NCBI RefSeq assembly: GCF_037126435.1
Contig: NZ_CP147020.1
Location: 1,779,293 to 1,843,292 of the forward strand
From: Bernardetia sp. ABR2-2B
Lineage (GTDB): Bacteria; Bacteroidota; Bacteroidia; Cytophagales; Bernardetiaceae
Reading direction: 5' to 3'
DNA length: 64,000 nt
Below the pieces are notes generated by a model. It was not told where the DNA came from. It saw only the letters and a list, made by a program, of their open reading frames with translations, and made no database searches. Numbering within the stretch: the stretch's first letter is position 1; each line of letters opens with the position of its first letter. Below are positions 60,583 through 60,791 of this stretch, in pieces. Both the position numbers and the translations under genes were made by a program.

Positions 60583-60621
60583 AATTGAATTGATATAAGT
60601 TTTGTATTATTTACTTTCTAT

Positions 60622-60696
60622 GAAAATGTTTAAGAATAGATTTTATATGTGTATTTGTTGGTGTCGCTACGCTAAAACACCAACAAAGGCTAGAGT
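60622..60696. mobile_element. 75-bp insert containing the hairpin repeat (copy B, inverted relative to copy A), flanked by 21-bp perfect direct repeats TTTGTATTATTTACTTTCTAT; MITE-like
   Basis: Direct repeats at 60601-60621 and 60697-60717 read directly. The core 60641-60693 is the reverse complement of 26249-26301 (2 mismatches). Confidence 0.55.
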
Positions 60697-60791
60697 TTTG
60701 TATTATTTACTTTCTATAATTGCTCTATTATTATACCAAACTTTCATCAAAATTGTTGGAAAAATATAATTTTCCTCTTGTTTGATTCTAT

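Follow-up and report, generated by a model that had tools for sequence, protein, structure and literature searches.

The cobT-DUF2141 spacer

The window, by which we mean the whole 64-kb stretch of the Bernardetia sp. ABR2-2B genome that was analysed, has a base composition of 32% G+C. Within it, the spacer between cobT and a DUF2141 gene, both encoded on the minus strand, carries a short hairpin element bracketed by two identical direct repeats. The repeats had been placed in this spacer before, and the positions of the two genes agree with that. The features of the spacer are the following (window coordinates).

60151-60582, minus strand: DUF2141 gene, neighbour of the insertion-bearing spacer
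60598-60621, plus strand: direct repeat copy 1 (target duplication), AGTTTTGTATTATTTACTTTCTAT; identical to 60694-60717, with a single homologue in relatives
60622-60693, plus strand: inserted element, 72 bp, short form; matches family members and is absent from orthologous spacers
60654-60687, plus strand: REP palindrome with an 11-bp stem and a 12-nt loop, followed by GGC; R1 covariance model 67.4 bits, E = 2e-17
60694-60717, plus strand: direct repeat copy 2 (target duplication), identical to copy 1
60718-60740, minus strand: conserved block, TTTGGTATAATAATAGAGCAATT as read on the gene strand, immediately upstream of the target that was duplicated; from the spacer alignment
60792-61841, minus strand: cobT (Pfam DBI_PRT), neighbour of the insertion-bearing spacer

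Exact matches to TTTGTATTATTTACTTTCTAT are located at 60601-60621 and at 60697-60717; a search of the window allowing up to three mismatches gave no further site. In the shuffle control the mean was 0.07 matches, and none of the shuffles gave two. The match continues three bases to the left, and the full direct repeat, AGTTTTGTATTATTTACTTTCTAT, spans 24 nt; its two copies, 60598-60621 and 60694-60717, are free of mismatches. Since the repeat reaches these three bases further, the insert is 72 bp (60622-60693) and not 75 bp. The earlier note had described perfect direct repeats of 21 bp around a single short structured insert of 75 bp; the arrangement is as described, and the two lengths are corrected here. 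On the gene strand, 15 nt separate copy 1 of the repeat from the DUF2141 start codon downstream of it.

In brief, the 72-nt unit consists of a left arm of 32 nt (60622-60653), the REP hairpin of 34 nt (60654-60687) and a tail of 6 nt, GGCTAG (60688-60693). The stem is the 11-bp stem noted before: 60654-60664 (TTTGTTGGTGT) pairs with 60677-60687 (ACACCAACAAA) around the loop CGCTACGCTAAA (60665-60676). DNA folding of the 72-mer gave -10.2 kcal/mol, compared with -4.3 +/- 1.75 for shuffles (z = -3.4).

The first 18 bases of the conserved block at 60718-60740, TTTGGTATAATAATAGAG, are identical in all four Bernardetia spacers. This block may be the DUF2141 promoter, and if so the insertion would put a stable hairpin in the DUF2141 leader.

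Orthologous spacers in relatives

The earlier note proposed looking for an empty site in relatives. In the aligned orthologous spacers of strains Wsw4-3y2, MNP-M8 and OM2101 there is one homologue of the 24-mer each, and the element is absent from all three. When positions 60622-60717 are removed from the window spacer, 135 nt remain, colinear with the 135-nt spacer of strain OM2101; the colinearity covers the upstream conserved block and the 15 nt before the start codon. The colinear 135-nt spacers and the single homologue in relatives thus support an insertion with target duplication, as had been suggested from the window. It should be noted that the junctions are backed by layout and length and not by each base, because the relatives are other species. 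The DUF2141 proteins of the window and the relatives are 80-85% identical, and the homologue of the 24-mer is clearly diverged. A metagenome scan gave no precise empty site of strain ABR2-2B.

The spacer of strain MNP-M8 holds a REP element of another subfamily, located right after the cobT stop codon (L122:2286-2367). This element is missing from the near-identical strain Wsw4-3y2 (L121:2349-2363), which has 15 nt where MNP-M8 has 82 nt, and nothing is duplicated. The MNP-M8 element is degenerate and its flanks are nearly identical to those of Wsw4-3y2, which is compatible with gain or loss. Because the MNP-M8 element is independent of that in the window, the cobT-DUF2141 spacer has been hit twice in separate lineages.

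The palindrome family

The hairpin is a member of a palindrome family of the form N-TTGTTGGTGT-CGCTNCGCTAAA-ACACCAACAA-N'-GGC that is found in Cytophagales and other Bacteroidota. A stem-only scan with one genome per species, using the pattern TTGTTGGTGT-N8-16-ACACCAACAA, gave at least 120 loci, mostly from Cytophagales and other Bacteroidota and some from Ignavibacteria. Bacteroidota genomes account for more than 100 loci. The loop CGCTNCGCTAAA and the trailing N-GGC are present in most of these loci, though neither was part of the search pattern. The pair just outside the fixed stem occurs in all four Watson-Crick forms (GC 28, UA 15, AU 7 and CG 6). This outermost pair covaries, and the stem is therefore kept as a structure. 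The GT[AG]G foot is absent from the 5' end of the hairpin; the foot is instead GCC(N), written N'GGC in this orientation. A core of 32 nt is almost invariant across distant Bacteroidota, an unusual feature given that descriptions of REPs generally present them as species-specific.

Most copies lie between ORFs, 9 of them between divergent and 19 between convergent gene pairs, so that divergent pairs are the rarer context. Their orientation relative to the neighbouring genes is mixed (34 versus 21, a weak bias). Several copies are located at contig ends within one assembly, as is typical of multi-copy repeats.

Two further copies are found in the window.

26248-26307, minus strand: copy B, short-form element with its hairpin at 26255-26288; R1 67.5 bits; no adjacent flanking duplication
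49396-49430, minus strand: copy C, diverged REP with a 13-nt loop, CACTATCGATAAA; R1 42.5 bits, E = 4e-10; no flanking duplication

Copy B is the reverse-complement copy that had been recognised before; 26248-26307 matches 60635-60694 over 60 nt with 93% identity, and the 36-nt core differs by one base, a match of which none is expected by chance. Copy C, the third copy in the window, was absent from the earlier note. It begins 7 nt past the stop codon of the ORF at 46078-49389. The 64-kb window thus holds three REP copies where none is expected. The orthologous loci of copy C in relatives (three loci of 22 kb) differ in the gene upstream of the ABC transporter; no clear REP was found in these three loci, the sole match being a weak one of 26 bits common to L128 and L129.

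The mobile unit

Over nearly its whole length, the 72-nt insert can be aligned with elements at five loci in two other genomes (L118, L024, L017, L091 and L078; 66-75 nt, 82-91% identity). It is a discrete element, and its ends are the ends of the repeats. A long form of approximately 143 nt is found at L121:611-753 in Bernardetia sp. Wsw4-3y2 and also in L118, L024, L017 and L091. The long form is bounded by terminal inverted repeats of 16 nt (GAAGTTGTTTAAGAAT and ATTCTTAAACAACTTC), and between them lie the REP hairpin and a second hairpin of 17-20 bp. We observed that the long form resembles a classical MITE built around a REP.

The window copy corresponds to the first half of the long form and ends 7 nt past the invariant 10-bp stem core. 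The other subfamilies have the same layout, with a subfamily-specific arm of 20-34 nt, the palindrome and then 7-8 nt. In every subfamily the right end of the element keeps a constant distance to the hairpin, which suggests hairpin-guided processing. Terminal inverted repeats are lacking in the short form, whose left and right ends are unrelated. The element is not a REPIN, as it has one palindrome only and a left arm that does not pair with the palindrome. By-eye inspection for guide pairing of the IS608 type, in which bases 5' of the hairpin would pair with the ends of the element, gave no simple complementarity.

The partner transposase

When ORFs within 2.5 kb of the hairpins were compared, one small-protein cluster recurred across genomes, with five ORFs from five genomes. 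All five match Pfam Y1_Tnp (E = 1e-7 to 9e-3), and two pass the curated cutoff. The HUH motif MPNHIHL is invariant in all five, and the tyrosine motif YIHxNP is present in all three full-length sequences. The best NCBIfam match of the cluster is the REP-associated tyrosine transposase (REP_Tyr_transpos) with 70.6 bits; this is under the cutoff of 80 bits and therefore points to a divergent RAYT subclass. Comparison of the RAYT with solved structures gave marginal matches only, to ISDra2 TnpA (E about 0.5).

Palindromes matching the R1 model lie within 200 nt of each of the five genes (L076, L001, L032, L108 and L087), and on both sides of the gene in L076, L001 and L032. RAYT homologues picked by protein similarity alone, in Pontibacter pudoricolor (L126) and Siphonobacter sp. 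(L127), likewise have the palindrome on both sides. The palindrome thus flanks genes for Y1 HUH transposases (RAYT/TnpA_REP) in seven genomes, none of which is the source genome. In Additional file 2 of Quentin et al. 2018 (PMC6006769), TGATGCCGTTGTTGGTGTTATCACCAACAACC is given next to a TnpA_Y1 subclass 2.6 gene of Runella slithyformis. Subclass 2.6 is found mainly in Bacteroidetes and has atypical palindromes without GT[AG]G (Quentin et al. 2018, PMC6006769). From the gene association and this listing, the hairpin can be assigned to the REP-type sequences of RAYT systems.

There is no RAYT-like ORF within the 64-kb window, and no Bernardetia entry is present among the best 120 of 2678 RAYT homologues. 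REPs are reported to outlast the loss of their RAYT (PMC3686654). The mobilising enzyme is likely a RAYT/TnpA_REP encoded elsewhere and close to TnpA_Y1 subclass 2.6; this role is suggested because genes and palindromes associate in other genomes.

RAYT-like fragments in L017 were considered and rejected, being degenerate and without flanking REPs. The RAYT genes at L001:6664-7177 and L087:4943-5404 are split by frameshifts and are apparent pseudogenes, and REP arrays are found around both.

Target duplications at other copies

Seven further single elements, in three other genomes and on one metagenome contig, lie between duplications of 24-60 nt, which makes eight cases with the window copy. 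The duplications abut both ends of the element in all but one older case. The repeat-flanked copies are listed below together with that of the window.

Window: 24-nt repeat, no differences, abuts both ends
L066: 24-nt repeat, no differences, abuts both ends
L076: 26-nt repeat, one mismatch, abuts both ends
L014: 30/31-nt repeat, one indel, abuts both ends
L072, minus strand: 31-nt repeat, one mismatch, abuts both ends
L033: 40-nt repeat, two mismatches, abuts both ends
L095: 46-nt repeat, two mismatches, abuts both ends
L145, metagenome contig: 27-nt repeat around a bare hairpin
[quoted passage not shown]

In a first sample of 103 copies with full flanks, 15 were flanked by an exact repeat of 16 nt or longer, compared with approximately 1% of random positions. 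With gapped alignment, 21 of 102 copies passed the score threshold versus 76 of 4000 controls. A right repeat starting 5-10 nt after the hairpin was found at 11 of 102 copies and at 7 of 4000 random positions (Fisher p = 4e-14).

The earlier note had asked whether each copy of the core is flanked by direct repeats. Several are, with unrelated duplications of 24-60 nt, but most are not: flanking repeats were undetected at approximately 80% of the sampled copies, including copies B and C of the window. Among short forms in subfamilies with a recognisable arm, about half carry them.

The duplicated sequences are unrelated between sites and share no target motif. Site-specific recombination, which had been offered as an alternative to target duplication, does not agree with this, as each site has a different duplicated sequence. 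Tandem arrays of the form target-element-target-element occur in L055, L023, L001 and L084, which shows that the family undergoes a secondary duplication process as well.

Origin of the duplication

We suggest that the spacer carries a short, non-autonomous REP-type element, likely mobilised by a RAYT, and that a single insertion in the ABR2-2B lineage duplicated a 24-bp target. We put the probability of this reading at roughly 70%. One 72-nt unit would have entered the cobT-DUF2141 spacer approximately 40 nt upstream of the DUF2141 start codon, and the same event would have duplicated 24 bp, giving target-element-target. We infer that insertion and duplication were one event. The alternative of two events, in which a REP inserted without duplication and a local rearrangement then produced the second 24-mer, is unlikely in our view. 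One route would be that target and element were duplicated in tandem and that one of the two element copies was then lost precisely. Tandem target-element arrays are indeed found in L055, L023, L001 and L084, and in Pseudomonas fluorescens SBW25 REPINs are repeated in tandem together with their flanks, for which there is no explanation (PMC3116915, PMC3337134); REPIN excision has also been observed (PMC3116915). Against this, two or three steps would be needed at each of eight independent sites, and the repeat would have to abut both ends exactly in seven of them. Slippage needs microhomology, and none was seen between the right end of the element and the sequence before copy 1 when the flanks were read by eye. 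One recent event fits better, because the repeats are perfect or nearly so.

Two other readings concern the nature of the hairpin itself. It might be a passenger in a MITE of the DDE type, moved by an IS transposase that makes long variable staggered cuts as in IS1634, which we consider very improbable. Long forms elsewhere do have 16-nt terminal inverted repeats (GAAGTTGTTTAAGAAT, ATTCTTAAACAACTTC), long direct repeats of variable length are reported for IS1634, and an IS4-family transposase gene lies approximately 240 bp from copy B. However, all repeat-flanked copies, that of the window included, are of the short form and lack terminal inverted repeats, and the length of the duplication is not fixed (24, 24, 26, 27, 30/31, 31, 40, 46 and approximately 60 nt). 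The IS next to copy B is an ordinary IS4 (NF033591, 230 bits) with candidate inverted repeats at 26476-26493 and 27639-27656, which leave the hairpin outside; on these grounds it was rejected as the mobiliser. No DDE transposase recurs near the hairpins and no IS with matching ends was found. The MITE-like character proposed in the earlier note thus stands as far as a small mobile hairpin element is concerned, but this element is REP-type, linked to a RAYT/Y1 enzyme and without terminal inverted repeats, and not a DDE-type MITE. The least probable reading is that nothing moved, and that a structured RNA, terminator or regulatory hairpin lies inside a local tandem duplication. The strong conservation of the hairpin, the covariation of its outermost pair and the intergenic position of the copies, rarer between divergent than convergent genes (9 vs 19), would suit such a function. 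Rfam gave no matches over the whole window at gathering scores and none in 60500-60850 at E up to 1, and a terminator scan of 60400-60900 on both strands found no T-run or terminator-like site. Identity as a structured RNA family was rejected for want of an Rfam match, and an intrinsic terminator because no T run follows the stem. The mixed orientation relative to genes (34 vs 21), the many copies per genome in unrelated contexts, with assembly breaks at contig ends, and the tight clustering of copies near transposase genes likewise speak against a non-mobile hairpin, as does the absence of both hairpin and duplication at this site in relatives.

For the single insertion of a REP-type element we tentatively propose a mechanism, at somewhat less than even odds. 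RAYT-family insertion would itself make long duplications, ranging from 24 to 60 bp, and at times small deletions, by joining to a nascent end at the replication fork and not by insertion into the template strand. Speculatively, the single-stranded element would be joined into the nascent strand at the fork; a displaced flap, if retained, would give a duplication of variable length, and if the gap were bridged instead a small deletion of the target would result. Such joining at the fork would fit the variation in duplication length, the small deletions seen now and then, and the absence of any target motif. Transposition of the IS200/IS605 Y1 type is described as giving no larger target duplications (Nunvar 2010, PMC2817692). 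Long ones of variable length would not be expected of IS200/REP-type elements, and in the IS200/REP literature we found no precedent for 24-bp or long variable duplications made by a RAYT.

Relation to known elements

The element is of a known kind, REP/RAYT and close to subclass 2.6, and its long variable duplication departs from the descriptions. REPtrons (REP plus RAYT/TnpA_REP) have the same short, intergenic, multi-copy palindrome, inverted on both sides of a single small Y1 HUH gene, as in the family described here. The subclass 2.6 entry of Runella slithyformis has the same stem, GTTGTTGGTG/CACCAACAAC with 5' GCCG, and the canonical GT[AG]G foot is absent here as it is from other subclass 2.6 sequences; the loop is 12 nt here (CGCTNCGCTAAA) and not 4 nt. 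A further difference is that the mobile unit measures approximately 70 nt and has a subfamily-specific arm on one side only. Target duplications of 24-60 nt are frequent here, whereas we did not find them described for REPs.

The Y1 HUH fold and hairpin-defined ends are shared with the IS200/IS605 family, of which IS608 is a member and which transposes as a single strand by 'peel and paste'. In IS608 the cuts fall approximately 19 nt from the hairpins on the 5' side and 10 nt from them on the 3' side. The ends found here, 20-34 nt away on one side and 7-8 nt past the 10-bp core on the other, are on a similar scale. IS200/IS605 elements have a hairpin at each end and a specific tetra- or pentanucleotide target, whereas we find one hairpin and no target motif. 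They are also described as making no larger target duplication (PMC2817692), in contrast to the long duplication described here.

The REPINs and tandem clusters of Pseudomonas fluorescens SBW25 (Bertels and Rainey 2011, PMC3116915) are, like our element, tied to a RAYT and non-autonomous. In the SBW25 clusters the flank is repeated together with the element in tandem arrays, as it is in some members of the present family. A REPIN consists of two inverted REPs, whereas our unit has one palindrome, and the window holds a single element between two target copies, unlike the tandem SBW25 clusters.

Bacterial MITEs such as Correia/NEMIS, RUP and Nezha are small, non-coding, structured, intergenic, multi-copy and variable between strains, as are the elements described here. 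MITEs end in terminal inverted repeats, and their duplication is short, its fixed length being dictated by the parent IS; neither trait is seen in the window copy. Among bacteria, long variable target duplications are best known from the IS1634 group (DDE, related to IS4). Its members are autonomous and longer than 1.5 kb, encode a DDE transposase and end in terminal inverted repeats; the present element shows none of this.

REPs are among the most abundant bacterial repeats, and the way they spread is, according to Corneloup et al. 2021 (PMC8266576), still not understood. A long variable duplication could help to explain how REPs move. If the duplications are made by the insertion itself, they are a footprint unlike that of any described Y1/HUH transposition and the first natural footprint to constrain REP spread. 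The sharp ends, the empty site and the recurring target footprint lead to testable predictions on the cutting and joining steps.

Other repeats in the window

An IS4-family insertion sequence occupies 26476-27656, with its transposase ORF at 26525-27655 (NF033591, 230 bits) and candidate inverted repeats CTCAGTCCTCTGACAAAA and TTTTGTCAATGGAGTAAG. It lies approximately 190 bp from copy B and seems unrelated to it. Around copy B there is also a 50-nt direct repeat with 84% identity, at 26030-26079, inside the 5' part of the ORF at 25633-26160, and at 26296-26345, overlapping the left arm of copy B. The two repeats bracket the copy B hairpin, a terminator-like stem at 26203-26236 and the start of the ORF. 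They may be an old duplication or a paralogue fragment.

A second palindromic repeat family is present at 5443-5477 and 35547-35579, with 15-bp stems of the form AGACCCTAAGGGTTT-loop-AAACCCTTAGGGTCT. A similar apex, GGGTTTGCAAACCC, is found in the second hairpin of the long-form elements in other genomes. The two palindromes may represent a second REP family with its own transposase.

A 36-nt direct repeat, GATTAYRTCATTGGTGGAGATACCAACAAYGGCAAG, occurs with 92% identity at 37684-37719 and 43815-43850 and is weakly similar to the right half of the REP plus GGC (R1 model, E about 0.15). The tandem heptamer (GATTAGT)n is found at 459-509, with a related inverted stretch at 24976-25033. Long AT-rich perfect palindromes are located at 11983-12024 and 3875-3910, for example AAAAATCCATTCAAGAAAATATATTTTTTTGAATGGATTTTT, and these are probably bidirectional terminators.
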